Assembly (NCBI GenBank): GCA_963555985.3
Contig: OY820591.1
Span: 2,304,001 to 2,368,000, forward strand
DNA from: Dehalococcoidia bacterium
GTDB lineage: Bacteria; Chloroflexota; Dehalococcoidia; Bin125
DNA: 64,000 nucleotides
Direction: 5' to 3'
The position numbers and the translations under genes were made by a program. Each line of letters opens with the position of its first letter. Within the stretch, counting starts at the first letter, position 1. The notes below the pieces were generated by a model. It was not told where the DNA came from, did not search any database, and saw only the letters and a list, made by a program, of their open reading frames with translations. Positions 6,825 to 59,513 of this stretch are shown piece by piece.

Positions 6825-6904
6825 TGCCAACCTCCCGAGGTTGTTGGGGCAGGGTATGCCAGACGCCCGATTTAGACTGCAAGGCAAAGCTGAAAGAGGG
6901 AACC

Positions 6905-7768: not shown

Positions 7769-7769
7769 C

Positions 7770-10553
7770 GTGCCCCTCTCTCGCAACGAGCTGAGGCCGC
7801 GCGCGGCCGAATTCGCTCGGGATTGGGCCGACGCCACCTACGAGAAGGCCGAGACCCAGAGCTTCTACAACGAGTTCTTCGCCATCTTCGAGGTCAAGCG
7901 GCGCAGCGTCGCCCGCTACGAAGAGCACATAAAGCGGCTCGACAATTCAGGCGGCTTCATCGATCTGTTTTGGCCGAAAGTGCTGTTGGTCGAGCAGAAG
8001 AGCGCTGGCCGGAGTTTGGCGGCGGCGCGCGAACAGGCGCTTGGCTACTTCGACGCCCTGCCAGAGTCTGAGCGCCCGCGCTATCTGCTGCTCTGCGACT
8101 TTCAAAACTGGGAACTGCTCGACCTCGATCTCGAGGAAGAAGTCCGCTTTGCGCTGCACCAGTTGCCGGACTACATCGACCAATTCAATTTCGTGCAGGG
8201 TTTGCAAAAGCACCCCTTCCGCGATCAGGATCCGGTCAATATCGACGCATCCGAGCTAATCGGCGCAGTCTACGACGGGCTGAATGCGTCCGGCCATCGC
8301 GGTCATGCACTCCAGCGCTTTCTCGTGCGGATCGTCTTCTGCCTCTTCGCCGACAACACCGGAATCTTCGAACGCGACAGCTTCCTGCAACTGCTGGAGG
8401 AGCGCACCTCCCCGGACGGCGCCGACACCGGCATGTGGCTCGACCACCTGTTCACTGTGCTCGACACGCCTGTGGCCGAGCGGTCAACGCTGCTCGACGA
8501 AGATCTCGCAGCATTTCCCTACGTGAACGGCGACCTATTCAGAGAACGATTGGATGCGCCGGACTTCGACTCCAGTTTGAGAACGTCGCTGATCAACGCG
8601 GCGCGCTTTGATTGGTCGAGAATTTCGCCAGCGATCTTCGGCGCGTTGTTCCAGTCGGTAATGAATCCCGACGAGCGCCGCGCGATGGGGGCGCACTACA
8701 CCACGGAGCAGAACATCCTCAAGGTGATCGAGCCACTCTTTCTCGATGACCTGCGGGCCGAATTTGAGCACCTCAAGCAGAACCGCGGAACGCGGCGACG
8801 GGCGGAACTGGAGCGCTTCCAACGCCGGCTCGGTGAGCTGCGCCTGTTCGACCCGGCCTGCGGCTGCGGCAACTTCCTGATTATCGCCTACCGAGAGCTG
8901 CGCCGGCTTGAAATCGAGGTGTTGCAGGAGCTGTATCCGTTCACTGAGACGGCAGCGCTGGACGTGTCTCAGCTCTCCAACATCAATGTGCACCAGTGCT
9001 ATGGAATCGAGATTCTCGACTTTTCCGCCCGCATCGCTGAGACCGCGCTCTGGATGATGGACCACATCATGAACGTGCGCCTCTCGGAGCAGCTCGGGCA
9101 GTATTTCGCGCGTATTCCGCTGGGCGAGTCGCCGCACATTCGCTGCGCCGACGCGCTCGAGATCGACTGGAACGACGTGCTACCGGCAGAGCAGTGCAGC
9201 TATGTCTTCGGCAATCCACCGTTCGTTGGCTCCAAGCTACAAACGCGGAGGCAACGGGATCAGATCCGGCGAATCGCCGATCTCGGCGGCAGTGGTGGCT
9301 CGCTCGACTACGTCGCCGCCTGGTTCCTGCTCGCCGCTGAGTATGTGCAACGCGGCGAAGCTCAGATCGGCTTCGTCGCAACCAACTCGATCACGCAGGG
9401 TCAGCAGGTCGGTCAGCTCTGGCCACTGCTCTTCAACCGCCACGGGCTCGAGATCGTCTATGCGCACCGTGCCTTCGCCTGGGGTTCAGACGCCAAGGGA
9501 ATAGCGCGCGTGCATGTCGTCGTGATCGGTTTGACTCGGTCAACGGCAGCACGTGCGAAGCGGGCACTCTACTCATATGACGATCTCAAGGGCGAACCGT
9601 CTCAGAGCGTGCATCGAGCCATTTCGCCGTATCTGATCGACGCCGACGCGCTCCAAAATCCACACCTGACAGTCAAATCAGCGTCATCGCCGCTCAACGG
9701 CCTCACACCGCTTCGCTACGGTACACAGCCGATAGACGACGGGAACTTGATTCTGAACGCGACTGAACGTTCGAAGATACTGAGTCAGTGCCCCAACCTC
9801 GAACCCCACGTGCGGCCGTTCGTCGGCGCACAGGAATTCTTGCAAGGAGGAGAGCGGTGGCTACTGTGCTTGGAAACTGCTCCACCTGCGAGCATCCGCT
9901 CGTGTTCCGACGTTGCGAAACGAATCTCGGCGGTTCGCGAGTTTCGCTCGAAAAGCAAGCGGGCAGTCACTCGTGAACTGGCAGCCAAGCCAAGGAGCTT
10001 TGCATTTTCGACGATTCCTGCCAACCCGTTTCTGACGATTCCTGAAGTCAGTTCGGAGCGCCGAGAGTACGTTCCGATCGGTTGGTTGGAGCCGCCAACC
10101 ATTCCCAGCAACCTGGTTCGGGTCCTCGAAGCTGCAACGCTCTGGCAATTTGCGTTGTTGACCTCGGCGATGCACAACGCCTGGATGCGCACTGTGGCAG
10201 GTCGCCTCGAAAGTCGTTACCGCTACTCAATCGGGATTGTCTACAACACTTTCCCTCTGCCCGACGCCGACGACGAGCAACTGCAAACGCTCGCCCCTCA
10301 CGCCCAGGTCGTGCTGGACGCCCGCGCACAGTTCCCGGACGCCTCCCTCGCCGATCTCTACGACCCCGACCTCATGCCGCCGCCGCTGCGCAAAGCGCAC
10401 CAACAACTCGACCGCGCCGTAGACCGCCTCTACCGCCGCGCCCCCTTCCGCTCCGAGCGCGAGCGAGTCGAACACCTGCTGGGGCGTTACGAGCGGATGG
10501 TTGCGCCACTCGAAGCGACGCGGCCCAAGCGTCGCCAACGTCGCTCTCGCTAA
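7770..10553 (+). CDS. MmeI-like type IIL/IIG restriction-modification enzyme (nuclease + N6-adenine MTase + TRD)
   Basis: N-terminal FIDLFWPKVLLVEQKS (PD-(D/E)xK-like), GAHYT, motif I FDPACGCGNFL, motif IV GNPPF, and C-terminal SLADLYDPDLMPPPLRKAHQQLDRAVDRLY typical of the MmeI family. Confidence 0.92.
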   Translation: MPLSRNELRPRAAEFARDWADATYEKAETQSFYNEFFAIFEVKRRSVARYEEHIKRLDNSGGFIDLFWPKVLLVEQKSAGRSLAAAREQALGYFDALPESERPRYLLLCDFQNWELLDLDLEEEVRFALHQLPDYIDQFNFVQGLQKHPFRDQDPVNIDASELIGAVYDGLNASGHRGHALQRFLVRIVFCLFADNTGIFERDSFLQLLEERTSPDGADTGMWLDHLFTVLDTPVAERSTLLDEDLAAFPYVNGDLFRERLDAPDFDSSLRTSLINAARFDWSRISPAIFGALFQSVMNPDERRAMGAHYTTEQNILKVIEPLFLDDLRAEFEHLKQNRGTRRRAELERFQRRLGELRLFDPACGCGNFLIIAYRELRRLEIEVLQELYPFTETAALDVSQLSNINVHQCYGIEILDFSARIAETALWMMDHIMNVRLSEQLGQYFARIPLGESPHIRCADALEIDWNDVLPAEQCSYVFGNPPFVGSKLQTRRQRDQIRRIADLGGSGGSLDYVAAWFLLAAEYVQRGEAQIGFVATNSITQGQQVGQLWPLLFNRHGLEIVYAHRAFAWGSDAKGIARVHVVVIGLTRSTAARAKRALYSYDDLKGEPSQSVHRAISPYLIDADALQNPHLTVKSASSPLNGLTPLRYGTQPIDDGNLILNATERSKILSQCPNLEPHVRPFVGAQEFLQGGERWLLCLETAPPASIRSCSDVAKRISAVREFRSKSKRAVTRELAAKPRSFAFSTIPANPFLTIPEVSSERREYVPIGWLEPPTIPSNLVRVLEAATLWQFALLTSAMHNAWMRTVAGRLESRYRYSIGIVYNTFPLPDADDEQLQTLAPHAQVVLDARAQFPDASLADLYDPDLMPPPLRKAHQQLDRAVDRLYRRAPFRSERERVEHLLGRYERMVAPLEATRPKRRQRRSR

Positions 10554-10899: not shown

Positions 10900-10990
10900 G
10901 ACTGGCAGCCTCCCGCCGGGACGTTCAGGTTCGGGCGTCTGCTAGCCTCAGCCTAGCCAGTGGGTGACGCGCCGTCATTGGAGAACAAAG

Positions 10991-11542
10991 ATGGTTCGGG
11001 TTGAAGGACTGTATGACCTGGAGACGGTGCGGCGCGAGTGGATCGGGCGCAAGACCGAGGTCGTGCCCGGCCGCTATCCGGTCGAATACGACAGCATCCG
11101 CCGCCACTGCCACATGGTCGAAGACACCAACCCGCTCTTCCTCGATCCCGAATACGGCAAGGCCTCGGAGTGGGGCGCCGTGATCGCGCCGCCGGTGATG
11201 ACCCGCTACTTCGCCGGCGCAGGCGTCTGGCCGCCAACCTCGTCCGACCAGATGGCGACCCTGACGCGCGCCATTCCCACACGCGGCGTGCGCATGATCA
11301 ACCTCAACACCGAGTGGGAGTACTTACTGCCCGCCAAAGTCGGCGATCACCTCGCCTCGCAGACCGAGGTGACCGACATCTACGAGAAGTCGATCCGGCT
11401 CGATCCGCGCTCCGTCTGGATCGTCACCGAGACCAGGATCACGAATCAGCACGGCGAGTTGGTCGCCGTCGGCACCAACACGCTCTGCACCCATCGAACC
11501 CCCGAACAAGTCGAAGCAGAGGAAGGCGAGCGCCCGCTATGA
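10991..11542 (+). CDS. MaoC/FAS1-like hot-dog dehydratase, N-terminal type
   Basis: SIRRHCHMVEDTNPLFLDPEY...IAPP and ITNQHGELVAVG. RBS GGAGA. Confidence 0.85.
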   Translation: MVRVEGLYDLETVRREWIGRKTEVVPGRYPVEYDSIRRHCHMVEDTNPLFLDPEYGKASEWGAVIAPPVMTRYFAGAGVWPPTSSDQMATLTRAIPTRGVRMINLNTEWEYLLPAKVGDHLASQTEVTDIYEKSIRLDPRSVWIVTETRITNQHGELVAVGTNTLCTHRTPEQVEAEEGERPL

Positions 11543-12003
11543 CGACCCGAACCGCTCCGAACAGCATCGCAACCGAACAAACCTATTGGAACGATGTCCG
11601 CGTCGGCGACCTGATTGACGGCTACGACCTGAGCTTGGACTGGACCAAGATGGTCGAGCAGGTCTCGGGCTCGCAGGACTTCTATCCCGTCCACCACGAC
11701 CCCGAATTCGCCGCCGAAGCCGGACATCCCGCCATCTTCTACAACACCGGCTTCACCCAGGCCGCGCTCTGCCGCGTGATCACCGACTGGGCCGGACCGG
11801 CCGGCTGGCTGCAAAAGTTCCGCTTCGAGATGCGGCGCATGAACATTCCCAACGACCAGGTGCACGCGCGCGGCAAGGTTGTCGGCAAAGCCAACCTGGA
11901 CGACGCTCACGGCACGGTCGAACTCGAAGTCTGGCTCGAAAACGACCGCCTCGGCGTGACCACCCCCGGCTGGGCGACCGTACGCCTGCCCAAGCGCAGC
12001 TAG
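11539..12003 (+). CDS. MaoC-like hot-dog dehydratase
   Basis: GSQDFYPVHHDPEFA motif. ATGA overlap with the upstream gene. Confidence 0.85.
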   Translation: MTTRTAPNSIATEQTYWNDVRVGDLIDGYDLSLDWTKMVEQVSGSQDFYPVHHDPEFAAEAGHPAIFYNTGFTQAALCRVITDWAGPAGWLQKFRFEMRRMNIPNDQVHARGKVVGKANLDDAHGTVELEVWLENDRLGVTTPGWATVRLPKRS

Positions 12004-12034: not shown

Positions 12035-13075
12035 ATGACACGGATCGGCATCATCGGCGCCGGCGCCATCGGCGGTACTGTTGGCGGAATGCTCACCCGC
12101 GCCGGCTACGACGTGACCCTGATCGATCACTGGGTCGAGCACGTCGAAGCGATGAAGGCCAACGGCCTGCGCCTATCGGGGCCGCTGATCGGCGATATCC
12201 GCGTGCCGGTCAAGGCGCTCCATCTCTACGAGGTGCAGGCCATCTCCGAGCCGTTCGACATCGGCATCGTCGCGGTCAAGTCCTACGACACCGAGTGGGC
12301 CACCCACCTGCTCAATCCCTTGGTGCGCGAGAACGGCGCGGTCGTCGACTTCCAAAACGGCATCAACGACGAGCGAGTCGCCGCCATCGCCGGGCGCGAC
12401 CGCACCCTCGGCTGCGTGATCACGATCGGTTGCGGGATGTACGACCCCGGCCACTGCCTGCGCACCGACACCCGCACGCTGGGCTTCAAAGTCGGTGAGC
12501 TGGACGGCTCAGACTCCGACCGCGCCCGCGAGATCGCCGCCATCATCAATCACGTCGCCGGCGCCGAGTCCACCACCAACCTCTGGGGCGAACGCTGGGG
12601 CAAGCTCGCCGTCAACTGCATGGCCAACCCCATCGCCGGACTCTCCGGCTACGGCTCCGGCGAGGTCCGAGCCCGCAACGAGACCCGCTGGCTCTGCACC
12701 CGCATCGCCGCCGAGGTGGTCCAGGTAGGCCGTGCCTACGGTCACCAAATCGACGCCGTTTGGGGCATCCCTGCGCAGAAGTTCATAGACGTAGCCAACG
12801 GCGCCGATCCAGCAGAGCTGGACGCCGAGCTCATCGCCGGAGCGCAAGCGCTCGGCGCAGGCCGCCCCAGCTTCCTCCAAGACGTCATCCGCCGCCGCCG
12901 AGTAGAAATCGACGCCCTCAACGGCTGGGTAGTCGAACAAGGCCAAGCCGTAGAAGTACCCACCCCAATCAACGCCGCAGTCACAGAAGTGGTGCGGTCG
13001 TTCGCGGTCGGGGAGTTGCAATCGGATCCAGCCAACATCGGCCGAATCATGAAACGGCTTGAGGGAAGTCGGTAG
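12035..13075 (+). CDS. Ketopantoate reductase (PanE/ApbA) family protein
   Basis: IIGAGAIGG, VAVKSYDT, FQNGI, WGKLAVNC, SFLQD, EIDALNG. Confidence 0.88.
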   Translation: MTRIGIIGAGAIGGTVGGMLTRAGYDVTLIDHWVEHVEAMKANGLRLSGPLIGDIRVPVKALHLYEVQAISEPFDIGIVAVKSYDTEWATHLLNPLVRENGAVVDFQNGINDERVAAIAGRDRTLGCVITIGCGMYDPGHCLRTDTRTLGFKVGELDGSDSDRAREIAAIINHVAGAESTTNLWGERWGKLAVNCMANPIAGLSGYGSGEVRARNETRWLCTRIAAEVVQVGRAYGHQIDAVWGIPAQKFIDVANGADPAELDAELIAGAQALGAGRPSFLQDVIRRRRVEIDALNGWVVEQGQAVEVPTPINAAVTEVVRSFAVGELQSDPANIGRIMKRLEGSR

Positions 13076-15463: not shown

Positions 15464-16660
15464 TTACGCCCCATTCCCAGGACCACCAAACTCCGGCAAC
15501 ACCTTCTCCGAGAAATCCTCAATCGTCCGCAAAATCTGACCCCGCGACAACAGCCCGTTGTACTGCCACATGAAAATCCAACTCACCGGCGTCACATCCA
15601 GCATGTTCTGCACCTGACGCTTGACCGAATCCAGCGTCCCCGCAAACAGCAAACCGTTCTCCAACTGCTCCTCCAGCGTCAAGAGCTCGCCGCCCGGAGG
15701 ACGCAGCGCCTCCGCGAAGCCGAAGGGAGCGAACCAAGCGCCGCCCGCAAACGCCGCCGAGTGACGCCAGAGCTCGATCGCCTCCTCGTCGGTGTCCGTG
15801 ATGATCACGTCGCGCAGCACGCCCAGACCCTCGCCCGGCTTCAGCTCCCGCCCCACTGAGGCCGCCTCTTCCTGGTAGACCTCGTAGAGCCGGTTCTGCA
15901 GCTCCGGGTACATCGGCGGCAAGATCGCCGTGATCCCCTCGCGGGCGCACCAGCGGATCGTCCGCTCCGACGAGGCGAACGGCTGGAACAGCGGCGGGTG
16001 CGGCTTTTGCAGCGGCTTGGGCACGACCCCGATCTGGCGCACGATGTTGTTCTCATCCACACCCTTGCCGTACATCCGCGTCGCCTCGATGTCCCAGGGC
16101 GTGCCCTCGGGCGGAATCTGCCAGGCGTGACCCTTGTACTCGACCATCTCCTCGGTCCAGCACTTGCGGATGATGTTGAAATGCTCCTCAAAGGCGGCGC
16201 GGTTGGCCGCGTCAATCGCATCGTGGTTACCTGGATGCGCCGCGTGAACGCCGTGGATCTGCTGCGCGAGCGTGTCGACCCAGCGCCGCTGATACCCCCG
16301 CGCAAAGCCCGCGAGCGCCCGACCGCCGGTCATGTGGTCGAGCATCGCAATGTCCTCGGCTACCCGAATCGGGTTCTGCGCGGGCAAGACCAGCCCAAGC
16401 TGTCCGACGCGGATGCGCTCCGTCTGCATCGCCAGGTAAAGGTCGAGCATGATCGGATTCGGCGAGACCTCGAACCCCTCAATGTGGAAGTGATGCTCGG
16501 TGAACCCGATCGAGTCGTAGCCGAGCGCGTCGCCGGCTTTGGCGAACTCCGACAAGTCCGCCAGCATCTCCTGATACAGCTCGGGACGGTTGCCGGCCAT
16601 GCCCGCTTCGATGTCTTCACGGGTACCGACGGAGGGGAGGAAGAAGAGACTGACCTGCAT
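15464..16660 (-). CDS. LLM-class flavin-dependent oxidoreductase
   Basis: FTEHHFH, NPIRVAEDIAMLDHMTGGR, GFARGYQ, PKPLQKPHPP. Confidence 0.92.
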   Translation of the reverse strand: MQVSLFFLPSVGTREDIEAGMAGNRPELYQEMLADLSEFAKAGDALGYDSIGFTEHHFHIEGFEVSPNPIMLDLYLAMQTERIRVGQLGLVLPAQNPIRVAEDIAMLDHMTGGRALAGFARGYQRRWVDTLAQQIHGVHAAHPGNHDAIDAANRAAFEEHFNIIRKCWTEEMVEYKGHAWQIPPEGTPWDIEATRMYGKGVDENNIVRQIGVVPKPLQKPHPPLFQPFASSERTIRWCAREGITAILPPMYPELQNRLYEVYQEEAASVGRELKPGEGLGVLRDVIITDTDEEAIELWRHSAAFAGGAWFAPFGFAEALRPPGGELLTLEEQLENGLLFAGTLDSVKRQVQNMLDVTPVSWIFMWQYNGLLSRGQILRTIEDFSEKVLPEFGGPGNGA

Positions 16661-22807: not shown

Positions 22808-23896
22808 TCAGCGAGTTCGCGCGATAATCGGAGCCATCTCGTCGATCAGATCGTTGGCCGCCGCCGGATCGAGGGCAGTCAGAGCCAAGTGATCGACTCC
22901 GTGCGCGGCGGCTTGCTCCGACTTCCGGATGATTTGGTCCGGCGTGCCGATGATCATGTCTTCGAAACGGTCCTGGGTGATGAAGCGCTCCTCGCCTTCT
23001 TTGAGATAGCTGTAGTGGCCCTCGTGCACATCAAGGTAGAGGCGGTCGAGCGGCCGCCCGCGCGCCTCCGCGTATTGCGTGATGTACTGGTTGTACTCTG
23101 CTGCGGCGTCGGGGTTTGCGCCCTTGAGATTGCCGCCCCAGCCGCCGTACTCGGACTCCCAGAGGGTGTGGTTGTAGACCGCCGCGACCGCGCCGGCGCG
23201 GTGGATGACGCGCTCGGACATGATGTCCTCGCCCTCTTCGAGCACGCAGGCTCCGGTCAATCCAACCGTGTACGGCTTCTCAGTGGAACGTCCTGCGGAG
23301 CGGGCGGCGTCCTCGATGATCGGGAACCCGGAGTCGAGCCACGGCCCCGTCCCTGATGTCACCCAGCCGTCGCCGACCTCACCCACAACCGCAGTCGCCC
23401 GCGGGCCGTTGGCGGCGAGGTAGATCGGGATGTGGTCCTTGATGTTGTAGAAGTCGGGATGGTCGGGATGGATCAGGCGGATCCAGGTCTCACGGCCGGT
23501 GACGTCGTCGGTGTGGAGGATGTCGTTGCCATCAAGCAGATCGCGCACCTGCTGCGCGTAAGCGCGGAACTTGGCCACGGGATACGAGGGCAGACCCATC
23601 GTGTTGCGTCCGGTGTAACCGGTACCCAGCGCCAGAATCGTGCGGCCCGGCGCGAGCTTGTTGATCGTTGCTATCGCAGAGGCGGTCACCGGCGCGATCC
23701 GATTGGACGGAATCGAGACCAGCGTGCCCAGCTTGATTGTCGATGTGCGCTCGGCGGCGAGCGCCATCGCCGCGTAGCAGTCGGACCAGATCAGCTGCGA
23801 GTCGGGGAACCAAGCGTGGGTGAAGCCCGCCTGCTCGGCGCGGACGACTTCCTTCCACATGTCGATGTAGGTGGGAACGAGCAGTCCGTAGTCCAT
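22808..23896 (-). CDS. LLM-class flavin/F420-dependent oxidoreductase
   Basis: AWFPDSQL, APGRTILALGTG, PIYLAANGP. RBS GAGGAGG. Confidence 0.9.
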   Translation of the reverse strand: MDYGLLVPTYIDMWKEVVRAEQAGFTHAWFPDSQLIWSDCYAAMALAAERTSTIKLGTLVSIPSNRIAPVTASAIATINKLAPGRTILALGTGYTGRNTMGLPSYPVAKFRAYAQQVRDLLDGNDILHTDDVTGRETWIRLIHPDHPDFYNIKDHIPIYLAANGPRATAVVGEVGDGWVTSGTGPWLDSGFPIIEDAARSAGRSTEKPYTVGLTGACVLEEGEDIMSERVIHRAGAVAAVYNHTLWESEYGGWGGNLKGANPDAAAEYNQYITQYAEARGRPLDRLYLDVHEGHYSYLKEGEERFITQDRFEDMIIGTPDQIIRKSEQAAAHGVDHLALTALDPAAANDLIDEMAPIIARTR

Positions 23897-24040
23897 GGTT
23901 CGCCTCCTCAAGTCTGTTCAGGTGTTCAGGCGCAATTTTTTTCCGAGGGCGGTCAGGCGCGATCCTCAGTGTATTGCTGGAGATCGTGCATCAGAGTGTT
24001 CAGGTTTGTTCAGTCCTGTTCAGTCGGATTGCAAGACTGG

Positions 24041-24658: not shown

Positions 24659-25747
24659 CTAACTCCGCTTGTGGATGACTTCGCGGGAGAAGTCGGCGAT
24701 GATCTCGCGGGCGCCGGCGGGGTCGTTGGCAGTCAAGGCGATGTTGTCGACGCCGATGGATTCGAGGTGTTCGAGCTTCTCGATGATCTGCGGGCCGGTG
24801 CCGACCAAGCTGCGCTCCAGCACCTGTGGGAAGATGAAGCGCTCTTCGCCCGGCTTGAGGTAGACCATGTGTCCCTCGTGCACATCTAGGTAGAGCCGGT
24901 CGTCCGGCGTGCCTTTGGCGGCGGAGTATTCGCGAATGTAGTTGTGGTACTCGCCGGCGAGATCGGGGTTGTCCATGCCCAGGTTCGCGCCGGGGCCGAA
25001 GGCTGCCTCCCACATCGCGTGGACGCCGGGCACCATGCCGGGGCCGAGAATCTGCATCACTCGCTCAGAGTTGATGGCCTCGCTCTCATGCAGGACCAGT
25101 CCTGCAGTGAGACCGACCGTGTACGGCTTCTCGGTACTGCGTCCGGCCGCCTCGGCTGCGGCGGCGATCACCGGGAAGCTTTGTTGGGCATTGAGACCCA
25201 TCCCGGTCGTCACCCAGCCGTCGCCGACTTCGCCCACCACGCCCATCGCCCGCGGGCCGTTTGCCGCGACGTAGATCGGGATGAAATCGTCCAGGTTGAG
25301 GAACTCGGAGCGGTGCCCGTGAATCAGGCGGATGTAGCGCTCTTGGCCGGTCACGTCGTCGGTGTAGAGCACGTCTTCGCCGTTGAGCAGCCCGCGCACC
25401 TGCTTGGCGTACTCGCGGTAGCGCGCGATCGGGTAGGCAGGCAGTCCCATCGTGTTGCGCCCGGTGTAGCCCGTACCGATACCAAGAATGATCCGGCCCG
25501 GCGCGAGCTTGTTCAGCGAGGCGACCGCCGATGCCGTTACCGGCGCGATCCGGTTCGAGGGAATCGAGACGAGGGTGCCCAGCTTGATCTTGGAAGTGTG
25601 ATGCGCCGCCAGCGCCATTGTCGCGTAGACATCGGAGTAGATCAGCTGCGAGTCATAGAACCAGGCATGGGTAAAACCCGCCTCCTCGGCCGCGACTGCT
25701 TCCTCCCAGGCGTTAATCCAGCTGGGAATCCCGATTCCGTAGTCCAT
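24659..25747 (-). CDS. LLM-class oxidoreductase, close paralogue of 22808-23896
   Basis: Shares KLGTLVSIPSNRIAPVTASA, GTGYTGRNTMGLP and RLYLDVHEGH. Confidence 0.9.
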   Translation of the reverse strand: MDYGIGIPSWINAWEEAVAAEEAGFTHAWFYDSQLIYSDVYATMALAAHHTSKIKLGTLVSIPSNRIAPVTASAVASLNKLAPGRIILGIGTGYTGRNTMGLPAYPIARYREYAKQVRGLLNGEDVLYTDDVTGQERYIRLIHGHRSEFLNLDDFIPIYVAANGPRAMGVVGEVGDGWVTTGMGLNAQQSFPVIAAAAEAAGRSTEKPYTVGLTAGLVLHESEAINSERVMQILGPGMVPGVHAMWEAAFGPGANLGMDNPDLAGEYHNYIREYSAAKGTPDDRLYLDVHEGHMVYLKPGEERFIFPQVLERSLVGTGPQIIEKLEHLESIGVDNIALTANDPAGAREIIADFSREVIHKRS

Positions 25748-26831: not shown

Positions 26832-27359
26832 CTACACGTCGATTCGAGCGGGATGCCCCATCACCGAGCGCAGAGTCAAGATCTGGCCGAGATGCGCATT
26901 GCCGTGCGCGATGCAGGTTTGCAGGATCTGCTTCGACTTGGCCTGGCGCCCGAACTGGACGACGCGGACGGTAGAGGCGAGTTCGTCGTCGGAGACGGCA
27001 CGGAGCCATTGCATCACGTCTTCGTGGACATCAACCCCATACTGAACCAGCGCCTCAACGGACGGGAAGCGCAGCGCCTGCGCTTCGCTCCGATCCATGT
27101 CGGTGCCTTGCGCGACTCTGGGAAAACCCCAGGCCGCATCCAGTTCCTGCCGCAACCAGACGGGCGGGCGGCGATCCTGGCAGACGAAGTTGATGATGTT
27201 GTCCTTGGTGCGGAAGTAGTGCCAGGCGTGGAAGCCGGGCGCGACCGTGCCCTCGCTGTACTGCCAGTGCAGCTGCTCGTCGTCGAGATCGTCGAGCGAG
27301 GCGATGTAGCCGTTGTGAGTGCTCTCCATGAAGTGGATGAGGAGTTCCGAGGGTTGCAT
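26832..27359 (-). CDS. DinB-family protein
   Basis: LDDLDDEQLHW, GFHAWH and HGNAHLGQI metal triad. Confidence 0.85.
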   Translation of the reverse strand: MQPSELLIHFMESTHNGYIASLDDLDDEQLHWQYSEGTVAPGFHAWHYFRTKDNIINFVCQDRRPPVWLRQELDAAWGFPRVAQGTDMDRSEAQALRFPSVEALVQYGVDVHEDVMQWLRAVSDDELASTVRVVQFGRQAKSKQILQTCIAHGNAHLGQILTLRSVMGHPARIDV

Positions 27360-28333
27360 CAGGCGTGACTTCCAATCGCAATCCCCGCGACCTGCGGAGC
27401 CACGTCGCGGGCGAGAAACTCAGGCACGTCATCGCGGTCGAACATGAAGTGCTGGAACTGCACTTCGGCGATGCCAGCTTCGGCGAGACGGCCGAGTGCA
27501 TCGACGATCTCGTCGGCGCCGCCGGCAAGCATCCCCTGGGCGCGAATCTGACCGAGGAACTCGTCGAGCGACTGGCCGGTCTGACCGAACATGCTCTGGA
27601 TGAAGCGCCCGCCGGCACGCTCCAGCTCGGGCGGGCCAGCCGCGTGGAACATCATCATTGAGTGTTCGATCTCGCCGGGGTCGCGGTTGATCGCTTCGCA
27701 GGCGCGGGCCATGACATCTCGCTTGTGTGCGTAGGCCTCCGGCGTGAGCGCCACGCAATTCCACTCGACGGCGTACTTCGCGGCCATCGGGATCGTGCGG
27801 CGTTCGCCGCCGCCGCCGATCAGGATCGGCGGACGACCTGAATCGGGCTTGGGCAGGCTGTCGGCGTTGTCGAGTTGGTAGTACTGGCCCTGGTAGGACG
27901 CTTCACCCGGCTCCCAGAGCGCTTGCATGAGCTGGATCGCTTCCTCTAACCGCTCGAAGCGCTCGCGGGTTGAGGGGAAATTGAGGCCGTAGGCGTGATG
28001 CTCGGGCTCATTCCAGCCAGCGCCCAGACCCATCACAAAGCGCCCGCCGGAGAGCTCGTCAAGCTGCGCCGCCATCCGGCCCACGTCGACCGGACGACGG
28101 AAGGTGACCGGCGTCACCATCGGCCCGAAGCGGAGATCGGATGTCTCCTCAGCCGCCATGACGAAGGAGAGAAAACACTCCAACGAGTCCCGCTGCACAG
28201 GACCGGTGAAATAGTGATCGCTGCGAAACACCGACGGGAAACCCAGGCGATCGGCGAGCCTCAGAATGTGCCGCCAATCCTCCCAGGTGAGACCGTTCTG
28301 ACCCTCCACCATCAAGGCAACGCGCATCGGCAT
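27359..28333 (-). CDS. LLM-class F420-dependent oxidoreductase
   Basis: FRSDHY, VTPVTFRRP, SGGRFVMGLGAGWNEPEH, PPILIGGGGE. Confidence 0.9.
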   Translation of the reverse strand: MPMRVALMVEGQNGLTWEDWRHILRLADRLGFPSVFRSDHYFTGPVQRDSLECFLSFVMAAEETSDLRFGPMVTPVTFRRPVDVGRMAAQLDELSGGRFVMGLGAGWNEPEHHAYGLNFPSTRERFERLEEAIQLMQALWEPGEASYQGQYYQLDNADSLPKPDSGRPPILIGGGGERRTIPMAAKYAVEWNCVALTPEAYAHKRDVMARACEAINRDPGEIEHSMMMFHAAGPPELERAGGRFIQSMFGQTGQSLDEFLGQIRAQGMLAGGADEIVDALGRLAEAGIAEVQFQHFMFDRDDVPEFLARDVAPQVAGIAIGSHA

Positions 28334-32769: not shown

Positions 32770-33072
32770 CTACCAGGAACTCTTGCGCACGCCCGGGAGC
32801 AGGCCCAGTGAGGCCATCTCGCGGAAGGTGATCCGCGAAAGCCCGAACTTGCGCATGTAGGCGCGCGGGCGGCCCGTGACCGCGCAGCGATTCTTGAGGC
32901 GGGTGGGACTGCTGTTGCGCGGCAACTGCTGCAACTGGAACTGAATCCGCTGCTTCTCGCCGGGCTGCTCGGTCTCGCGCAGCTGCTGCTTCAGCGACTC
33001 GCGCTTGGCCTTGTACTTCTCGTGCATCCTGCGGCGCTTCAGATCGCGGTGAATGTTGCTCTTACGGGCCAT
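32770..33072 (-). CDS. rpsN: 30S ribosomal protein S14, long Zn-independent (C-) form
   Basis: [36 protein letters not shown]...GVRKSSW, 100 aa, single Cys. Confidence 0.96.
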
Positions 33073-33175: not shown

Positions 33176-33637
33176 TCACTCGCGCCGCTTGCGTTTCTCA
33201 ATCTCCCGGCCCTGCTTCTGCTCCAGCCGGCCCAGCGCGCGGCCTTTGTCGGGGTGCGGATCGATGCGAACGCCGTAGTTGACGCGGCCTTCGTGACCTT
33301 CGGGCAAGTACTCCGTGATGGGAAGACCTTCCTCATCGCAGAAGAGCAGTCAATGGCAGTACTTCCAGCGCTGCATCTCCTCGCAGGGGCAGATCCAGGT
33401 GGATTCCTTGACCTCTTCCGCCTTGTCCTCATAGAAGTTGCAGGGACAGAGCGGACGCCCGTAGTCGTCGATATGTTTGGCCAAGCCGATCACCAGAAAT
33501 TCGGTGATGTCGTGCTCGGGATGCAGATAGGACCCGCTCTTCTCCGCGAAGTTGCGGGCGAACTTCCACATCTTGTTCAGGTTCTTCTCCGACGCCTGCT
33601 GACGATCGTCGTCGCTGACTCGCTCGACATCAGCCAT
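33176..33637 (-). CDS. Ferredoxin-thioredoxin reductase catalytic subunit, probable selenoprotein (153 aa, Sec at UGA 33352-33350)
   Basis: GRPLCPC...WICPC...KYCH-UGA-LLFCDEEGLPITEYLPEGHEGRVNYG... The frame stays open for 57 more codons and a SECIS-like hairpin follows. Confidence 0.9.
33311..33342 (-). promoter_or_regulatory. Bacterial SECIS-like hairpin
   Basis: mRNA UCUGCGAUGAGGAA-GGUC-UUCCCAUCACGGA begins about 8 nt after the UGA. The apex AGGUCU matches the E. coli fdhF SECIS. Confidence 0.8.
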
Positions 33638-33694: not shown

Positions 33695-34591
33695 TCAGTT
33701 GTCGCTCTCCTGGCGTCCGCGCAGGAAGTTCTCTAGGTCTTCTATCAGCGCGTCGGCAGAGGGAAGGTCAGCTGCGCCACCTTGGGACTGCGCTTCCGGC
33801 GCGGCCGGTTCGGGCGCGGCCGCTTCCAGCCGCGCTACATATTCGCGCAGCTCGGGATTCTCGCTGAGCGCTTCCTCGAGCTGCGCGTGGAATCGCTGAA
33901 TCGCGCGATCCAGCGGCTCCAGATCGAGGCGCAGGTCAGTCATGTCGCCAACCACGCGAAGCAACGCCTGAGCGCCGACCGGGTTCGTGATCCCGGGCAG
34001 ATAGTGCGGCACCGAGGCCCACAGGCTCACGCCGCCCACGTCTCGCCGGCGGCAGTGATCGTGAAACACGCCCACGATCCCGCTCGGGCCTTCAAAGCGC
34101 GAGGGATGCATGTTGTAGCGCTCGGCCAACTGCGAATTGTTCGCCGAACCGGAGACATGCACCGGTCGCGTGTGCGGCGCGCCGCTGGCGACCGCGCCCA
34201 TCGAGAGCACCAGCTTGGCCCCGATCACATCCACCAACTCCGACATCGCGGCCAGATAGCGCCGCCAGCGATAGTGCGGCTCAATCCCCAGGCCGACGAC
34301 GATATCTCGGCGCGCGCCCGGGCGTGCGCGCAAATGCACGAACTCCGTGCGCGGCCAGACGATGATCCGTTCGCCGCGGTGGTAGCGCGCCATCGGTCGA
34401 GCTTCGGTGAAGTCGTAGAATTCCTCCGGGTCGATGCTGGCGAACGGTCCCGTGCCGTGCTGCTGGATCAGGTACTGGGCCGCCGTCGAGGCTGACTCGC
34501 CAGCGTCGTTCCAGCCCTCCCAGGCCAGAATCAGGATGGGATCGGTGAGATCGGGCAGGCGCTCGATTTGTAGGTCAGGTGAGGTGCTCAT
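33695..34591 (-). CDS. PAC2-family (proteasome assembly chaperone-like) protein
   Basis: AWEGWNDAGESAS, IDPEEFYDFTEARP, GIEPHYRW, PHTRP, WASVPHY. Confidence 0.9.
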   Translation of the reverse strand: MSTSPDLQIERLPDLTDPILILAWEGWNDAGESASTAAQYLIQQHGTGPFASIDPEEFYDFTEARPMARYHRGERIIVWPRTEFVHLRARPGARRDIVVGLGIEPHYRWRRYLAAMSELVDVIGAKLVLSMGAVASGAPHTRPVHVSGSANNSQLAERYNMHPSRFEGPSGIVGVFHDHCRRRDVGGVSLWASVPHYLPGITNPVGAQALLRVVGDMTDLRLDLEPLDRAIQRFHAQLEEALSENPELREYVARLEAAAPEPAAPEAQSQGGAADLPSADALIEDLENFLRGRQESDN

Positions 34592-46544: not shown

Positions 46545-47465
46545 ATGACCACCGTTGCCGCCCCACCCGCGCACTCCACGCTCGCCTGGCTCGAAGCCGA
46601 GGGCATCCACATCATCCGCGAAGTCGCCGCCGAACTCGAACGCCCCGTCCTCCTCTTCTCCGGCGGCAAAGACTCGATTGTGATGCTGCGCCTGGCCGAA
46701 AAAGCCTTCTGGCCCGCGCGCATTCCCTTTCCCGTGATGCACGTGGACACCGGCCACAACTTCCCCGAAGCGATCGACTTCCGCGACCGCCGCGTCGAAG
46801 AACTCGAAGTACAACTGGTTGTCGCCTCCGTCCAGGACTCGATCGACCAGGGGCGAGTCGTCGAAGAGACCGGCCCCCGCGCCTCCCGCAACCGCCTCCA
46901 GACCGTCACTCTGCTCGATGCGATCGAGGAACACGGTTTCGACGCGCTCTTCGGCGGCGCCCGCCGCGATGAAGAGAAAGCACGCGCTAAGGAGCGCATC
47001 TTCAGCTTCCGCGACGCCTTCGGCCAGTGGGATCCCTCCAACCAGCGCCCTGAACTCTGGAACCTCTACAACGGACGCCTCACGCGCGGTGAGCACATCC
47101 GCGCCTTCCCCCTCTCCAACTGGACCGAACTCGATGTCTGGCAGTACATCCGCCAGGAACAGCTCGAAATTCCCTCGATCTACTTCGCCCACGAGCGCGA
47201 GATGTTCCAGCGCGACGGGATGCTCTTCCCCGTCTCTGAGTTCGTCCCCCGCCTGCCCAACGAAGACCCCTTCTCTGCCCGCGTCCGTTTCCGCACCGTC
47301 GGCGACATGACCTGCACCGCCGGCGTCCGCTCCGACGCCGACACGATCGAATCCGTCGTCGCCGAAATCGCCGCCACCCGCATCACCGAACGCGGTGAAA
47401 CCCGCGCCGACGACCGCTTCTCCGAAGCCGCCATGGAAGACCGCAAACGCGAGGGCTACTTCTAA
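46545..47465 (+). CDS. cysD: Sulfate adenylyltransferase subunit 2
   Basis: LFSGGKDS, GGARRDEEKARAKER, QRPELW, RFRTVGD, KREGYF. Confidence 0.96.
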   Translation: MTTVAAPPAHSTLAWLEAEGIHIIREVAAELERPVLLFSGGKDSIVMLRLAEKAFWPARIPFPVMHVDTGHNFPEAIDFRDRRVEELEVQLVVASVQDSIDQGRVVEETGPRASRNRLQTVTLLDAIEEHGFDALFGGARRDEEKARAKERIFSFRDAFGQWDPSNQRPELWNLYNGRLTRGEHIRAFPLSNWTELDVWQYIRQEQLEIPSIYFAHEREMFQRDGMLFPVSEFVPRLPNEDPFSARVRFRTVGDMTCTAGVRSDADTIESVVAEIAATRITERGETRADDRFSEAAMEDRKREGYF

Positions 47466-48770
47466 ATGGTCACGCTGAACCCCGATCCGGAAACCGACCT
47501 CTTTCCCGAGCACGAGCGCCCACTCCTCCGTCTCGCCACCGCCGGCTCCGTCGACGACGGCAAGAGCACCCTGATCGGGCGTCTGCTGTTCGACTCCAAG
47601 CAGACCTTCATCGACCAGATGGAAGCGATCGAGCGCACATCGCGCACGCGCGGCGACGACGCCGTCAATCTCGCCTACCTCACCGACGGTCTCCGCTCCG
47701 AGCGCGAGCAGGGCATCACCATTGACGTCGCCTACCGCTACTTCGCTACCCCGCGCCGCAAGTTCATCCTCGCCGACACCCCGGGACACGTGCAGTACAC
47801 CCGCAACATGGTCACCGGCGCCTCCACCGCCGACCTCGCCCTCCTGCTGGTCGACGCACGCCGGGGCGTACTCGAACAGACCCGCCGCCACGCTTATCTC
47901 TCCGCCCTGCTCGGCATCCGCCACTTCGTCCTCTGCGTCAACAAGATGGACCTGGTCGACTGGGATCAACAAGTCTTCGAGCAGATCGCGCAGGAACTGA
48001 CTCTGTTCGCCTCCCGCATGGGCGTCACCGACGTTCGCGCCATCCCAATCTCGGCCAAGTTCGGCGATTCGGTGGTCGAACGATCTGCGCGAATGCCCTG
48101 GTACGACGGCCCGTCCTTGCTCGAATTGCTCGAAGAGGTCGAAGTCCTCGACCCGCCCCAACACCATGCAGCGCGTCTGCCGGTGCAATACGTCATCCGC
48201 CCCCAGCGAGACGTCTACCACGACTATCGCGGCTACGCCGGAACGATGGCCGCCGGTGTCCTCCGCCTCGGCGATCGCGTGCAAGTCCTGCCCTCGGGAG
48301 CCGAGACCACCGTGACCGCGATCGACGCATTCGAGCAGCCTCTCCACGAAGCCGCACCGCCAATGGCCGTCACCGTGCGCCTGGCCGATGAGCTCGATGT
48401 GCGCCGAGGCTCGATCATCGCCGCCGCCGAAGCCCCGCCCCTGGTCGCAACCACGCTTGAGGCCCACATCTGCTGGATGAGCGAGCGCGCTCCCCTGCGA
48501 CCGCGCCAGCGCCTGGTAGTCAAACACACCACCCAGACCACGCGCGCGCTCGTCGACGAAGTCACCGCCCGCCTCGACGTGAATACGCTCGACTACGATC
48601 TCACCGCCTCCCAACTCAGCCTCAACGAGATCGGGCGCGTCCGCCTGCGCCTCATGGCACCTATCTGCGTTGATCCATACGATGAGTCGCGCGCGACCGG
48701 AGCGTTCATCCTGATTGACGAAGCGACCAGCGCCACGGTCGCAGCGGGCATGATCAACTCAGCCTCATGA
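47466..48770 (+). CDS. cysN: Sulfate adenylyltransferase subunit 1 (GTPase)
   Basis: TAGSVDDGKSTLIGRLL, EQGITIDVAYRYF, DTPGH, NKMD. No fused CysC. Confidence 0.96.
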   Translation: MVTLNPDPETDLFPEHERPLLRLATAGSVDDGKSTLIGRLLFDSKQTFIDQMEAIERTSRTRGDDAVNLAYLTDGLRSEREQGITIDVAYRYFATPRRKFILADTPGHVQYTRNMVTGASTADLALLLVDARRGVLEQTRRHAYLSALLGIRHFVLCVNKMDLVDWDQQVFEQIAQELTLFASRMGVTDVRAIPISAKFGDSVVERSARMPWYDGPSLLELLEEVEVLDPPQHHAARLPVQYVIRPQRDVYHDYRGYAGTMAAGVLRLGDRVQVLPSGAETTVTAIDAFEQPLHEAAPPMAVTVRLADELDVRRGSIIAAAEAPPLVATTLEAHICWMSERAPLRPRQRLVVKHTTQTTRALVDEVTARLDVNTLDYDLTASQLSLNEIGRVRLRLMAPICVDPYDESRATGAFILIDEATSATVAAGMINSAS

Positions 48771-49732
48771 CCAACGCCCGATTTCTTCTCTCCCCCCGCA
48801 GTGCGGGGGGAGATGTCCCAAAGGGACAAAGGGGGGTCCCACCCCTCTTCGCCGTAGGAGTGCTCATCGCGGCGCTGCTCGCCGCCGTCAACTTCAACGC
48901 TTGCAGCGACGATCCCGGCTACAACTCCGACGAATTGATCCTCGCCACTACCACCAGCCTCAACGATTCCGGTCTGCTCGATCAGCTCGTACCAATCTTC
49001 GAAGACGAAGCAGATCTGACTGTCAAGATCATCGCCGTCGGCACCGGCGCCGCCCTGCGCATGGGTGCCGAGGGCAACGCCGATGTGCTCCTCACCCACG
49101 CGCCTGCCTCGGAGCAAGAGTTGCTCAACGCCGGCGACGTCACGGGCCGCACGCTGGTCGCCTACAACGACTTCATCATCGTAGGACCGATCGCAGATCC
49201 CGCAGGAGTAGCGGGATGGACGAACGCGAGCAGAGCGCTTGGGCAGATCGCCGCGCTCTGCGTAGGCGGGCCCTGCCAATTCGCCTCCCGCGGCGACGAC
49301 AGCGGCACGCACAAGAAGGAAATCGCCCTCTGGCAAGATGCGGGCATCGACACCGCCCGGCGCAACGAGGACTGGTACCTCGAAGTCGGACAAGGCATGA
49401 GCGCGACCCTGACGCTGGCCAATCAACGCCTCGCCTATGCCCTCACCGACCGCGGCACCTACTTGGCTCTCTCGGACGATCTGCCCGATCTGGTCGTCTT
49501 GGTCGAGGGCGATGCGCGCTTGCTGAACTTCTATAGCGTGATGACGGTCAACCCTGCGAAGGGCCGGGTCAACACTCCCGCCGCCGAAGCCTTCGCCGCC
49601 TTCCTCACCCGCGACGACATCCAAACCATGATCGGCGAATACCTCAGCGCCGAATACGGGCGTCCGCTGTTCATTCCCGCCGCCGGCGACACTGAGCAGG
49701 CAATCTCCGCGCGCGGCGGCGCGCCCCGCTGA
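48767..49732 (+). CDS. tupA: Tungstate ABC substrate-binding protein
   Basis: LATTTSLNDSGLL, VGTGAAL, SRGDDSGTHKKE, GQGM, TDRGTY. Confidence 0.88.
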   Translation: MTNARFLLSPRSAGGDVPKGQRGVPPLFAVGVLIAALLAAVNFNACSDDPGYNSDELILATTTSLNDSGLLDQLVPIFEDEADLTVKIIAVGTGAALRMGAEGNADVLLTHAPASEQELLNAGDVTGRTLVAYNDFIIVGPIADPAGVAGWTNASRALGQIAALCVGGPCQFASRGDDSGTHKKEIALWQDAGIDTARRNEDWYLEVGQGMSATLTLANQRLAYALTDRGTYLALSDDLPDLVVLVEGDARLLNFYSVMTVNPAKGRVNTPAAEAFAAFLTRDDIQTMIGEYLSAEYGRPLFIPAAGDTEQAISARGGAPR

Positions 49733-49772
49733 GCTGGGCAGACGACACTCGCCGCAAGGCTAAGATCGCGCC

Positions 49773-50471
49773 ATGGACTTGATCTGGGACGGCATTCGAG
49801 AAGCGGCGCGGCTGTGGTGGGCAGGCGACCGCGAGGTGATCGAAATCACCCTGCGTACGCTCGCGATCTCATCGGCGGCGACCGCGCTGGCGCTCGCCGT
49901 CGGCATCCCGCTGGGCGCAGTCCTGGCCCTGCGCCGCTTCTGGGGGCGCGGCCTGATCGTAGCGGCGGTGAACACCGGCATGGGGATGCCACCGGTCGTG
50001 GTCGGACTGATTGTGATCCTGATCCTGATTCGGCAAGGCCCGTTGGGCGGTCTCGAGATCGCCTTCACTCCAACCGCGATGGTGATCGCTCAGCTACTGC
50101 TCTCGCTGCCGCTGGTCGTGGGCTTCTCGCTGGCCTCGATCCAGTCGGTCAATCCGCGCCTGATCGGGCAGATGTGGGCAATGGGAGCAAACCGCTGGCA
50201 GGTGCTCTGGCTCCTGATTCGGGAAACTCGACTGGGCTTGCTGGCAGCGGTGATGGCCGGTTTCGGCGCGGCGATCTCCGAGGTCGGCGCTTCGATGCAG
50301 GTTGGCGGCAACCTGGCCGGCGAGACGCGAGTGCTGACCACAGCGACGGTGCTGGAAACGAGCCGCGGCAACTGGGAGGTGGCCATCGCGCTGGGGTTCG
50401 TCCTGGTCGTGCTCGCCTTCTTGGTCAACCTCGTCCTGACCGCCGTACAGCAGCGGCGGCCGGTCGCGTGA
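49773..50471 (+). CDS. tupB: Tungstate ABC permease
   Basis: NTGMGMPPVVVGL, GFGAAISEVGASMQVGGN, TRVLTTA. Confidence 0.9.
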   Translation: MDLIWDGIREAARLWWAGDREVIEITLRTLAISSAATALALAVGIPLGAVLALRRFWGRGLIVAAVNTGMGMPPVVVGLIVILILIRQGPLGGLEIAFTPTAMVIAQLLLSLPLVVGFSLASIQSVNPRLIGQMWAMGANRWQVLWLLIRETRLGLLAAVMAGFGAAISEVGASMQVGGNLAGETRVLTTATVLETSRGNWEVAIALGFVLVVLAFLVNLVLTAVQQRRPVA

Positions 50472-51559
50472 CTGACACAGCCGAGCGAGCGGATCCGCAC
50501 CTCCAGATCCGCGATCTGGCGGTCCAGCGCGGCGGCGTGACCGTGCTCACCATTGACCAACTCGATCTGCAACGGGGCGAGGTCACGGTCGTGATCGGGC
50601 CAAACGGGTCGGGTAAGAGCACGCTGCTGGGCGCATTGCAGCTGGTGCTGCGACCATTGCGCGGTCAGCTTCTGCTTGACCGCGAACCGATGAATCGCGA
50701 TCCGGTTCACACCCGTCGCCGGATGGCGGCGGCATTCCAGGAACCGCTGCTGCTGAGCATGTCGGTGCAGGCGAACGTTGAGCTTCCGCTCCGCATTCGC
50801 GGCGTTGGCCGCCGCGAGCGGCGCGAGCGCGCCGCGCACTGGCTGGAGCGGTTCGGCATTGCCAACCTGGCCAAACGCCACTCGCGCCAGCTCTCCGGAG
50901 GCGAAGCGCAGCGGGTCAGCCTGGCGCGGGCGTTTGCCTCCCAGCCGGAGGTGCTGTTGCTGGACGAGCCGTTCGCCGGCGTGGACGCACCCACGCGGGA
51001 GGGTCTGATCGAAGACTTCGCCGAGATCGTGTCCGAGATGCGCCCGACTACGGTGCTGGTCACGCACGACCGCGACGAAGCATTGCGACTGGGCGACCAC
51101 GCCGCCTTGCTGATCGGCGGCAGTCTGCGTCAGACCGGACCACCGGCAGAAGTCTTCGACCGCCCCGCCGACCGTGCAGTCGCGGAGTTTGTGGGCATGG
51201 AGAATGTGTGGGAGGGACGGCGCTCGGAATCAGGGATATATAGCGCCGGCGGGGTGCGGCTGGCGTCGACGGTGAAGTCGGTGGCGCTTGGATCGCCCGC
51301 CGTGCTCTGCGTGCGGCCTGAACGGATCGTGCTCTCGCGGGATGGGGAGATGAGCGGGAACCGGCTGAGAGCAGTCGTACGCACGATCAGACCGCGCGGC
51401 CCGGTCGTGAGAGCTGTGTTGACCAGCGGAGGGCTGATACTCACCGCCGATGTGCCGGTAGCCGCGTGGGACGAGCTCAGGCTGTCCGTGGGTGAGGAAG
51501 CGATTGCGCGCATCGCCCCCGCCGACCTGCACGTGATCAGCGACGACGGAGCAGCCTGA
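50468..51559 (+). CDS. tupC: Tungstate ABC ATP-binding protein
   Basis: GPNGSGKS, LSGGEAQR, LLLDEP, TOBE. GTGA overlap with tupB. Confidence 0.85.
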   Translation: MTDTAERADPHLQIRDLAVQRGGVTVLTIDQLDLQRGEVTVVIGPNGSGKSTLLGALQLVLRPLRGQLLLDREPMNRDPVHTRRRMAAAFQEPLLLSMSVQANVELPLRIRGVGRRERRERAAHWLERFGIANLAKRHSRQLSGGEAQRVSLARAFASQPEVLLLDEPFAGVDAPTREGLIEDFAEIVSEMRPTTVLVTHDRDEALRLGDHAALLIGGSLRQTGPPAEVFDRPADRAVAEFVGMENVWEGRRSESGIYSAGGVRLASTVKSVALGSPAVLCVRPERIVLSRDGEMSGNRLRAVVRTIRPRGPVVRAVLTSGGLILTADVPVAAWDELRLSVGEEAIARIAPADLHVISDDGAA

Positions 51560-59383: not shown

Positions 59384-59462
59384 GTGGGGTCTCCTGCCAT
59401 TCACTGAGTCCGATGGGCCAACGCCTTTGAGGATAGCGGTGTAAGAGGAGCGCAGAACGAGC

Positions 59463-59489
59463 GTTACCTTTTCGCCCCGCAATCCGTCT
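59463..59489 (+). promoter_or_regulatory. Putative ECF-sigma autoregulatory promoter
   Basis: GTTACC-N16-CGTCT upstream of the ECF operon. Confidence 0.5.
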
Positions 59490-59513
59490 TGTCTATAGAG
59501 GGGGAAAAGGACA

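Follow-up and report, generated by a model that had tools for sequence, protein, structure and literature searches.

The locus considered here raises the question of whether a hairpin directly 3' of an in-frame UGA is a selenocysteine insertion sequence (SECIS), i.e. whether it marks this UGA for reading as selenocysteine (Sec) instead of stop. It lies on contig OY820591.1 of a Dehalococcoidia bacterium (assembly GCA_963555985.3), within a stretch of 64,000 nucleotides (positions 2,304,001 to 2,368,000 of the forward strand, hereafter the window), in a gene for the catalytic chain of ferredoxin:thioredoxin reductase (FTR). Comparison with orthologues suggests that the element is very probably a bacterial SECIS inside the coding region of a single-Sec FTR gene. 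The features on which the argument depends are the following:

33176..33637, minus strand: FTR catalytic-chain gene (FTR-B/FtrB type), recognized by Pfam PF02943 (E 6.9e-25), by matches to PDB chains and by 1237 homologues.
33350..33352, minus strand: in-frame UGA, codon 96, probably read as Sec; its alignment partner is the final CHC cysteine, residue 87 of 1dj7_A.
33179..33349, minus strand: 57 codons 3' of the UGA (LLFCDEEGLPITEYLPEGHEGR...), which need recoding of the UGA to be translated and stand in frame with Cys homologues in the alignment.
33317..33337, minus strand: conserved apical stem-loop GAUG-(A)-GGAA [GGUC] UUCC-CAUC, the proposed SelB-binding SECIS core, delimited by the fold, pair counts, subtypes, the rare codons GGT, CTT, GAA and GAT, and low synonymous change.
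33338..33343, minus strand: 5' half of the lower stem (U-UCUG plus the mismatched C), paired in the window and not conserved in orthologues.
33311..33316, minus strand: 3' half of the lower stem (A-CGGA-G), lineage-specific.

The FTR frame is initiated by ATG and comprises 153 codons including the in-frame TGA, followed by a TGA stop at 33178..33176. The assignment is firm: the PF02943 profile match reached 87.6 bits against a cut-off of 22, and the protein matched the PDB chains 7bzk_A (E 5e-25) and 1dj7_A (E 8e-22). The translated frame carries the motifs CPC (64-66), CPC (83-85) and CHU (94-96), in which C64, C66, C83, C85, C94 and U96 align with residues 55, 57, 74, 76, 85 and 87 of 1dj7_A. 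We take residues 55, 74, 76 and 85 of this chain to be the [4Fe-4S] ligands and residues 57 and 87 to form the redox-active disulfide. According to the GOS metagenome survey (PMC2398784), two FTR cysteines form a redox-active disulfide and can be replaced by Sec. Residue 66 is a TGC-encoded Cys in the window, leaving a single in-frame TGA.

The protein search returned 1237 homologues, nearly all of them full length among the 120 listed, and position 96 was Cys in all 16 aligned full-length homologues. A C-terminal extension of about 50 residues is common to the window protein and the Dehalococcoidia Cys homologues. The second cluster motif, CPC in the window, is CAC in 51 of 95 UGA-bearing genes and in 16/16 aligned Cys forms; both versions thus occur together with UGA, and CPC is not tied to Sec. 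One Cys-form homologue, P0025, carries the peptide CHCMLFCNSEGLP / CHCMLFCNSEGLPITEY, which agrees with the C-N-S-E-G-L-P subtype seen among Sec forms and may reflect a recent switch from Sec to Cys or from Cys to Sec.

On the minus strand from 33352 to 33311, the UGA and the hairpin read UGA CUG CUC UUC UGC GAU GAG GAA GGU CUU CCC AUC ACG GAG. The minimum free energy (MFE) structure obtained with RNAfold (-13.8 kcal/mol) is a hairpin at 33343..33311 that follows the TGA at 33352..33350 directly. It has 13 pairs, composed of UCUG/CGGA with one additional U-G pair, a C.A mismatch, GAUG/CAUC, a bulged A (33333) and GGAA/UUCC, closed by a GGUC loop at 33328..33325. This is exactly the structure with one bulge and one mismatch that a preliminary description of this DNA had drawn, and its placement of the loop start was likewise accurate: the first loop base is the 22nd nucleotide after the UGA, leaving 21 nt between UGA and loop. 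When the fold was computed in a context of 151 nt, the upper eight pairs stayed and the lower stem was exchanged for other pairings. The published consensus for bacterial SECIS elements, as given in PMC13188914, comprises a loop of 3-9 nt, an upper stem of 4-16 bp, an energy of at most -7.5 kcal/mol, a G at loop position 1 or 2, with G or U as the usual next base, and 16-37 nt between UGA and loop. The window hairpin falls within all of these ranges, with a loop of 4 nt, an upper stem of 4 bp (8 across the bulged A), a G in loop positions 1-2 followed by U, a spacing of 21 nt and -13.8 kcal/mol. An intrinsic terminator was considered and rejected because the hairpin has no U-tail; no terminator signature was found at the site.

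Species-representative genomes were scanned for C-x-C-x-x-M-Q-x-x-K-Y-C-H followed by TGA. The same TGA was present in at least 102 loci of other genomes, and all orthologue counts given here rest on these loci among the matches listed. Seventy-eight of the 80 titled loci belong to Dehalococcoidia, Chloroflexota/Chloroflexi/Chloroflexia, Dehalococcoides or Thermoflexus, the two exceptions being an Entotheonellaceae metagenome-assembled genome (MAG) and an 'uncultured bacterium'. The encoded proteins are 55-93% identical to that of the window, with a lowest pairwise identity of 48%. Two MAGs have UGA-bearing FTR genes on two contigs (L014 and L051 in one, L063 and L079 in the other), and the sequences downstream of the two genes differ; these are either two Sec-FTR paralogues or mixed bins.

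In none of 96 genes does another stop occur within 75 codons before or 45 codons after the TGA. Four- and sixfold degenerate codons 3' of the UGA keep their amino acid (at least 90%) through 19-36 synonymous changes each across 95 genes, which indicates that the downstream frame is under purifying selection; it therefore appears to be translated.

For the structural comparison, 101 sequences with at least 48 nt after the TGA (two short loci were dropped) were aligned without gaps, giving 87 distinct rows. The GGUC loop was kept in 79 of these, and in 77 of the 87 the MFE fold itself agreed with the consensus, with a G-first loop at 17-23 nt. The loops of these 77 were GGUC (60), GGUCU (9), GGA (4), GGG (2), CGGGC (1) and CGUGC (1), and the spacing between UGA and loop was 21 nt in 72, 20 nt in 2, 17 nt in 2 and 23 nt in 1. 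Loss of the hairpin in UGA-bearing orthologues, which the preliminary description had named as the outcome that would speak against its proposal, was thus not what we observed. Since the subtypes with loops of 3, 4 and 5 nt sit in different registers of the codon alignment, the named structure was counted directly. It was paired in 83.2% of cells, compared to 35-57% when the 3' partner was slid by 1-3 columns, and none of 500 shuffles reached the observed pairing.

Pairing-preserving substitutions were seen at A23-U30 (60 sequences), replaced by C-G in 9, and at U18-A34 (74), replaced by C-G in 4. In addition, the bulge of the window type alternates with a base pair: column 20 is A in 49/87 sequences and C paired with G33 in 32/87; G19-C33 with a bulged A20 (45) stands against a paired C20-G33 (32), and this switch couples a replacement of Glu by Ser, Pro or Ala to a synonymous change from CCC to CCG. 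Divergent members rebuild the hairpin with other letters, namely GGCA/UGCC, GGGC-GGUCU-GCCC, AUGGGGA-CGGGC-UCCCCAU, CGGAAGA-GGG-UCUUCCG and GUAAACCC-GGA-GGGUUUAC. The lower stem behaves differently, with pair 13-39 unpaired in 52/87 and pair 14-38 in 29/87. The 'long' hairpin of the preliminary description therefore holds for the fold in the window, while across the family conservation is confined to the apical ~21 nt and UCUG/CGGA, the lower stem, is free to vary.

Codon choice within the same genes provides stronger, phylogeny-matched evidence than the compensatory changes, as judged from codon counts and parsimony in 95 UGA-bearing genes on a tree built without the hairpin columns. Gly104 is GGT in 87/95 genes, compared to GGC in 56-72 and GGT in only 2-15 at six other Gly columns; Leu105 is CTT in 67/90, a codon used 1-13 times elsewhere; Glu103 is GAA in 68/71 and Asp101 is GAT in 37/41. 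In the codon usage of the window, taken from 40 Pfam-supported open reading frames (ORFs), GGT accounts for 13.1% and CTT for 5.4%. Parsimony counted 6 synonymous changes at Gly104, 4 at Leu105 and 9 at Pro106, compared to 19-36 (mean 26.3) at 18 other four- or sixfold degenerate codons conserved to at least 90%. The codons of the loop and the 3' arm thus show 3- to 6-fold fewer synonymous changes than the rest of the gene. Outside the apex the rate is normal (Leu98 25, Thr108 20, Glu109 18), which limits the constraint to the apical ~21 nt (33337..33317) of the long hairpin.

Several results weigh against a SECIS, and they are taken up here together with the alternatives that they favor. The hairpin might be a by-product of a conserved peptide (D/N-E-E-G-L-P-I) and a G+C-rich composition, with no function at the RNA level and with the fate of the UGA independent of it. 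Its stability is ordinary compared to dinucleotide shuffles (z -0.44, with 59 of 200 shuffles folding at least as well; z -0.43 in a second shuffle test), although the proven element of E. coli fdhF reached only z +0.10 in the same test, which therefore cannot recognize a SECIS. Agreement with the consensus model was found for 523 of the 1771 TGA triplets of the window (29.5%), so that membership by the model alone carries little weight. The E-G-L-P peptide is conserved in Cys homologues as well, and the hairpin, codon and synonymous-change comparisons were drawn from UGA-bearing genes; tblastn for a second FTR gene as a Cys-form control found none in 859 kb, and a search of a plasmid collection for the Cys form yielded only a 33%-identical Sulfurovum gene. 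For ten of the 87 distinct sequences the MFE fold departs from the consensus, in most cases because the sequence pairs in a competing register, and RNAalifold applied to the 101-sequence codon-register alignment did not recover the hairpin but a different weak structure (-1.04 kcal/mol). The covariation that the preliminary description had suggested checking is present as pairing-preserving substitutions and falls short as independent evidence: on supported branches of the tree the three base pairs show 3, 1 and 3 independent compensatory pairs, with none in the wrong direction for two of the three, and a sign test on them was not significant because there were too few events, which also means that most of the 69 double-change cells are inherited.

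From the window alone, a non-random status of the hairpin is not callable and is only weakly supported, and it is therefore the comparative data that decide. Just 2 of the 1771 TGA triplets of the window are followed, at a distance of 17-24 nt, by a GGUC tetraloop whose stem has at least 4 bp. When the window's peptide is recoded synonymously, only 2.3% of the variants fold equally well, the mean recoding z across the 95 genes is -1.3, and the seven-codon string of the stem-loop has a probability of 1.4e-4 under window codon usage. Peptide conservation cannot set synonymous codons, and the preference for rare ones (GGT, CTT) together with the reduced synonymous change at exactly these codons on the same tree argues against a mere by-product, as do the divergent members that rebuild the hairpin with different amino acids; we consider this explanation very improbable. 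Selection of the apical hairpin for some other role, such as pausing for cluster insertion or folding, mRNA stability or binding of another factor, would agree with the constraint at the RNA level, which by itself does not name a ligand. It would also agree with the lack of the bulged U that is essential in E. coli and with the negative searches for selB (NCBIfam on 49 ORFs, tblastn); selA, selB, selD and a tRNA-Sec gene were not found in the 64-kb window, and Rfam gave no match over the whole window at gathering thresholds. Against such a role, the loop lies at 17-23 nt in 77/77 of the passing sequences and is G-first with GU as in the fdhF apex, features of position and loop that a SECIS needs and that pausing or stability do not; moreover, tRNA-Sec is linked to the gene and a terminator-like tail is lacking. 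We therefore rate another role as improbable. Least probable, to the point of being negligible, is that the UGA terminates translation after all or arose as an error of sequencing or assembly, with the gene truncated or a pseudogene and the downstream similarity a relic. It is true that gene callers truncate here, and the close orthologues P0066 and P0075 are stored as 95-aa proteins ending at CH; however, the same TGA recurs in at least 102 independently assembled genomes, and the flanking frame described above is free of other stops and keeps its amino acids amid synonymous change. A SECIS thus remains the preferred reading, and the preliminary description's claim of RNA-level support for recoding of the UGA is borne out by the rare codons, the depressed synonymous change, the kept hairpin and the tRNA-Sec genes of relatives.

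These tRNA genes tie the Sec-FTR to the Sec trait in the lineage without proving the trait for the window's own genome. ARAGORN found 26 tRNA genes across the DNA of the loci, of which 14 were tRNA-Sec, and Rfam RF01852 confirmed 14/14 at 61.9-74.2 bits. The tRNA-Sec gene (selC) lies within 5 kb of the Sec-FTR gene in 14/102 loci, always upstream and divergent. Four of the 72 loci with sufficient flank have it about 100-120 nt from the FTR start; in another 4 the distance is 1.5-2.1 kb, and 6 of the 59 loci whose flank extends to 5.1 kb or more have it at 3.7-5.0 kb. Their positions are:

L008, 6386-6478: tRNA-Sec gene.
L012, 441-533: tRNA-Sec gene.
L014, 522-614: tRNA-Sec gene.
L066, 3699-3791: tRNA-Sec gene.
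L013, L017, L025, L033, L035, L057, L058, L065, L076 and L078: one tRNA-Sec gene each.

In the window no tRNA gene of any kind was found. Pfam on 78 window ORFs of at least 150 aa and 14 proteins, and NCBIfam on 49 ORFs of five loci bearing tRNA-Sec, revealed no Sec machinery, and Rfam at E values up to 10 on 33250-33400 gave only a spurious microRNA match. The sole match of tblastn with E. coli SelA and SelB was the N-terminal GTPase domain of a CysN-like ORF (47466-48770), which was rejected as SelB: identity was 25%, confined to the N-terminal domain, and the ORF stands beside a CysD-like gene. It is part of a sulfate-assimilation-like cluster at 46545-51559 on the plus strand, with a PAPS-reductase-domain gene (CysD-like), the EF-Tu-type GTPase gene (CysN-like), and genes for a periplasmic binding protein, a permease and an ABC ATPase. 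The neighbors of the FTR gene in the window are a PAC2-family gene (33695-34591) and rpsN (32770-33072), and no thioredoxin gene was seen adjacent. At L017, the ORF at 6337-7137 on the minus strand, directly 3' of the Sec-FTR gene and on the strand opposite to it, ends in a thioredoxin domain (TIGR01068, 133 bits); it is a possible substrate gene.

A further proposal of the preliminary description, that the element could seed a genome-wide selenoproteome search, proved weak: the consensus passes too many TGA triplets, as seen above, and the strict GGUC form leads to no selenoprotein gene beyond FTR in the DNA scanned. When 859 kb were scanned for TGA triplets in open frames with a GGUC-loop hairpin (stem of 4 bp or more) 16-30 nt downstream, 79 matches were FTR and 9 looked off-frame, and no other selenoprotein gene with this strict form was found in the 859 kb. 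A window scan guided by GC3 (G+C at third codon positions) gave 29 candidates, of which by eye only FTR looked coding on both sides of the TGA, and tblastn with E. coli FdhF had no match. In four related loci (L007, L045, L059 and L061) a GGUC-loop hairpin stands 22 nt behind a TGA, about 1.2 kb 3' of FTR on the opposite strand, in a reading frame that is open but looks off-frame; this hairpin probably lies antisense within a neighboring solute-binding-protein gene. The only other window TGA with a GGUC-loop hairpin at 17-24 nt (minus strand, 12422 with the adjoining 50 nt on its 3' side) runs antisense to a plus-strand gene of ketopantoate-reductase-like type (12035-13075) and was taken as chance.

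From these comparisons we infer SelB binding, Sec insertion and the presence of selA, selB, selC and selD in this genome. By analogy with E. coli fdhF, a ribosome arriving at UGA-96 would melt the lower pairings, and the apical ~21-nt stem-loop (33337..33317) would stay. The C-terminal domain of SelB would contact its loop G-U and perhaps also the bulge in the 5' strand. Carrying GTP and Sec-tRNA(Sec), SelB would then be tethered about 12 nt from the A site and deliver Sec in competition with release factor 2. The predicted product is an enzyme of 153 residues in which Sec substitutes for the second CHC cysteine, where it would be one partner of the redox-active pair beside the [4Fe-4S] cluster.

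A wider interpretation concerns the lineage as a whole. In it, a single-Sec (CHU) FTR lineage, apart from the double-Sec FtrB and present in well over 100 Chloroflexota species, with a near-invariant AGGUCU apex and in a subset divergent beside selC, would be the anchor selenoprotein of the Dehalococcoidia Sec trait. Its minihelix would define the SelB code of the phylum and be close enough to that of fdhF to maybe work with E. coli SelB, and the RNA requirement would have driven the replacements at residues 101-103. We advance this tentatively and consider it doubtful as a whole.

With respect to annotation, the analysis corrects an error that recurs in public data, in that the evidence points to a 153-residue selenoenzyme where a 95-residue fragment is recorded. 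An FTR with a probable Sec beside its [4Fe-4S] cluster appears to be widespread in Dehalococcoidia/Chloroflexota and is useful for redox biochemistry there. The element is also a clean case of an mRNA structure that would fix rare codons within a coding region, and the 21-nt minihelix with its natural variants makes a ready set for probing recognition by Chloroflexota SelB.

Elsewhere in the window, a 935-residue ORF at 7746-10553 on the plus strand contains all five MmeI domains (N-terminal, helicase spacer, methyltransferase, target recognition and C-terminal) and is a type IIL restriction-modification enzyme. Three paralogous family III CoA-transferase genes (1031-2332, 2342-3643 and 5535-6887, all on the minus strand) are adjoined by genes for an enoyl-CoA hydratase and a MaoC/hotdog dehydratase (6824-7768 and 10964-12003), and this group is an acyl-CoA conversion cluster. 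Five genes of the luciferase-like monooxygenase family occur in the 64 kb, all on the minus strand (15464-16660, 22808-23911, 24659-25747, 27359-28333 and 58142-59638).

With regard to known systems, bacterial SECIS elements and Sec-containing FTR are both already in print, and no new mechanism is opened here. The GOS survey (PMC2398784) reported an FTR selenoprotein family of two sequences, one of them with two Sec, and predicted a SECIS 3' of the UGA in an FTR read (its Figure 7). That family resembles the window protein in being an FTR catalytic chain with Sec in a CxU motif in place of a redox-active Cys; it differs in extent, the single-Sec form being present here in at least 102 loci of other genomes. 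The NCBIfam model NF041072 ('FtrB family double-selenoprotein') describes a different protein, as the window protein, at 42.7 bits, stays below its cut-off of 160 and contains a single Sec (CPC...CPC...CHU) where the model has two. The C-terminal extension of the window protein is a further difference. The FTR selenoprotein family is listed with a CxU motif in reviews from 2022 and 2026, and Dehalococcoidia with 46-49 selenoproteins are listed in BSepDB. In the portions of the literature accessible as text we found none on a single-Sec Dehalococcoidia FTR or its SECIS; supplements and databases may well contain it.

The RNA element itself can be compared with two references. It shares all features of the bSECISearch consensus model, as do 77 of the 87 distinct orthologues. 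Like the SECIS of E. coli fdhF (UGA-140), it is a hairpin that follows its UGA directly within the coding sequence, carries GGUC as a tetraloop above a closing A-U pair, and has one unpaired base bulging from the 5' strand of the upper stem. According to PMC8659212, the E. coli element has a 17-nt upper stem-loop 11 nt from the UGA, in which U17, G23 and U24 are conserved; U17 and G23 are the SelB binding sites, G23/U24 lie in the apical loop, and the bulged U17 in the upper stem is required for SelB binding. In fdhF the loop starts 18 nt after the UGA, compared to 21 nt in the window, and the minihelix measures 17 nt at 11 nt from the UGA, compared to 21 nt at 12 nt. The bulged U lies three pairs below the loop in fdhF, whereas the window has a bulged A four pairs below it, in a bulge of a type that is not conserved, column 20 pairing with column 33 in 32/87 relatives. 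The host differs as well, the window coming from a Chloroflexota-type genome. The label 'fdhF-type' given in the preliminary description therefore fits the apex and does not extend to the bulged U or the spacing, while the apex quoted there for fdhF was right: it reads A-GGUC-U in NC_000913.3, identical to the AGGUCU of the window.

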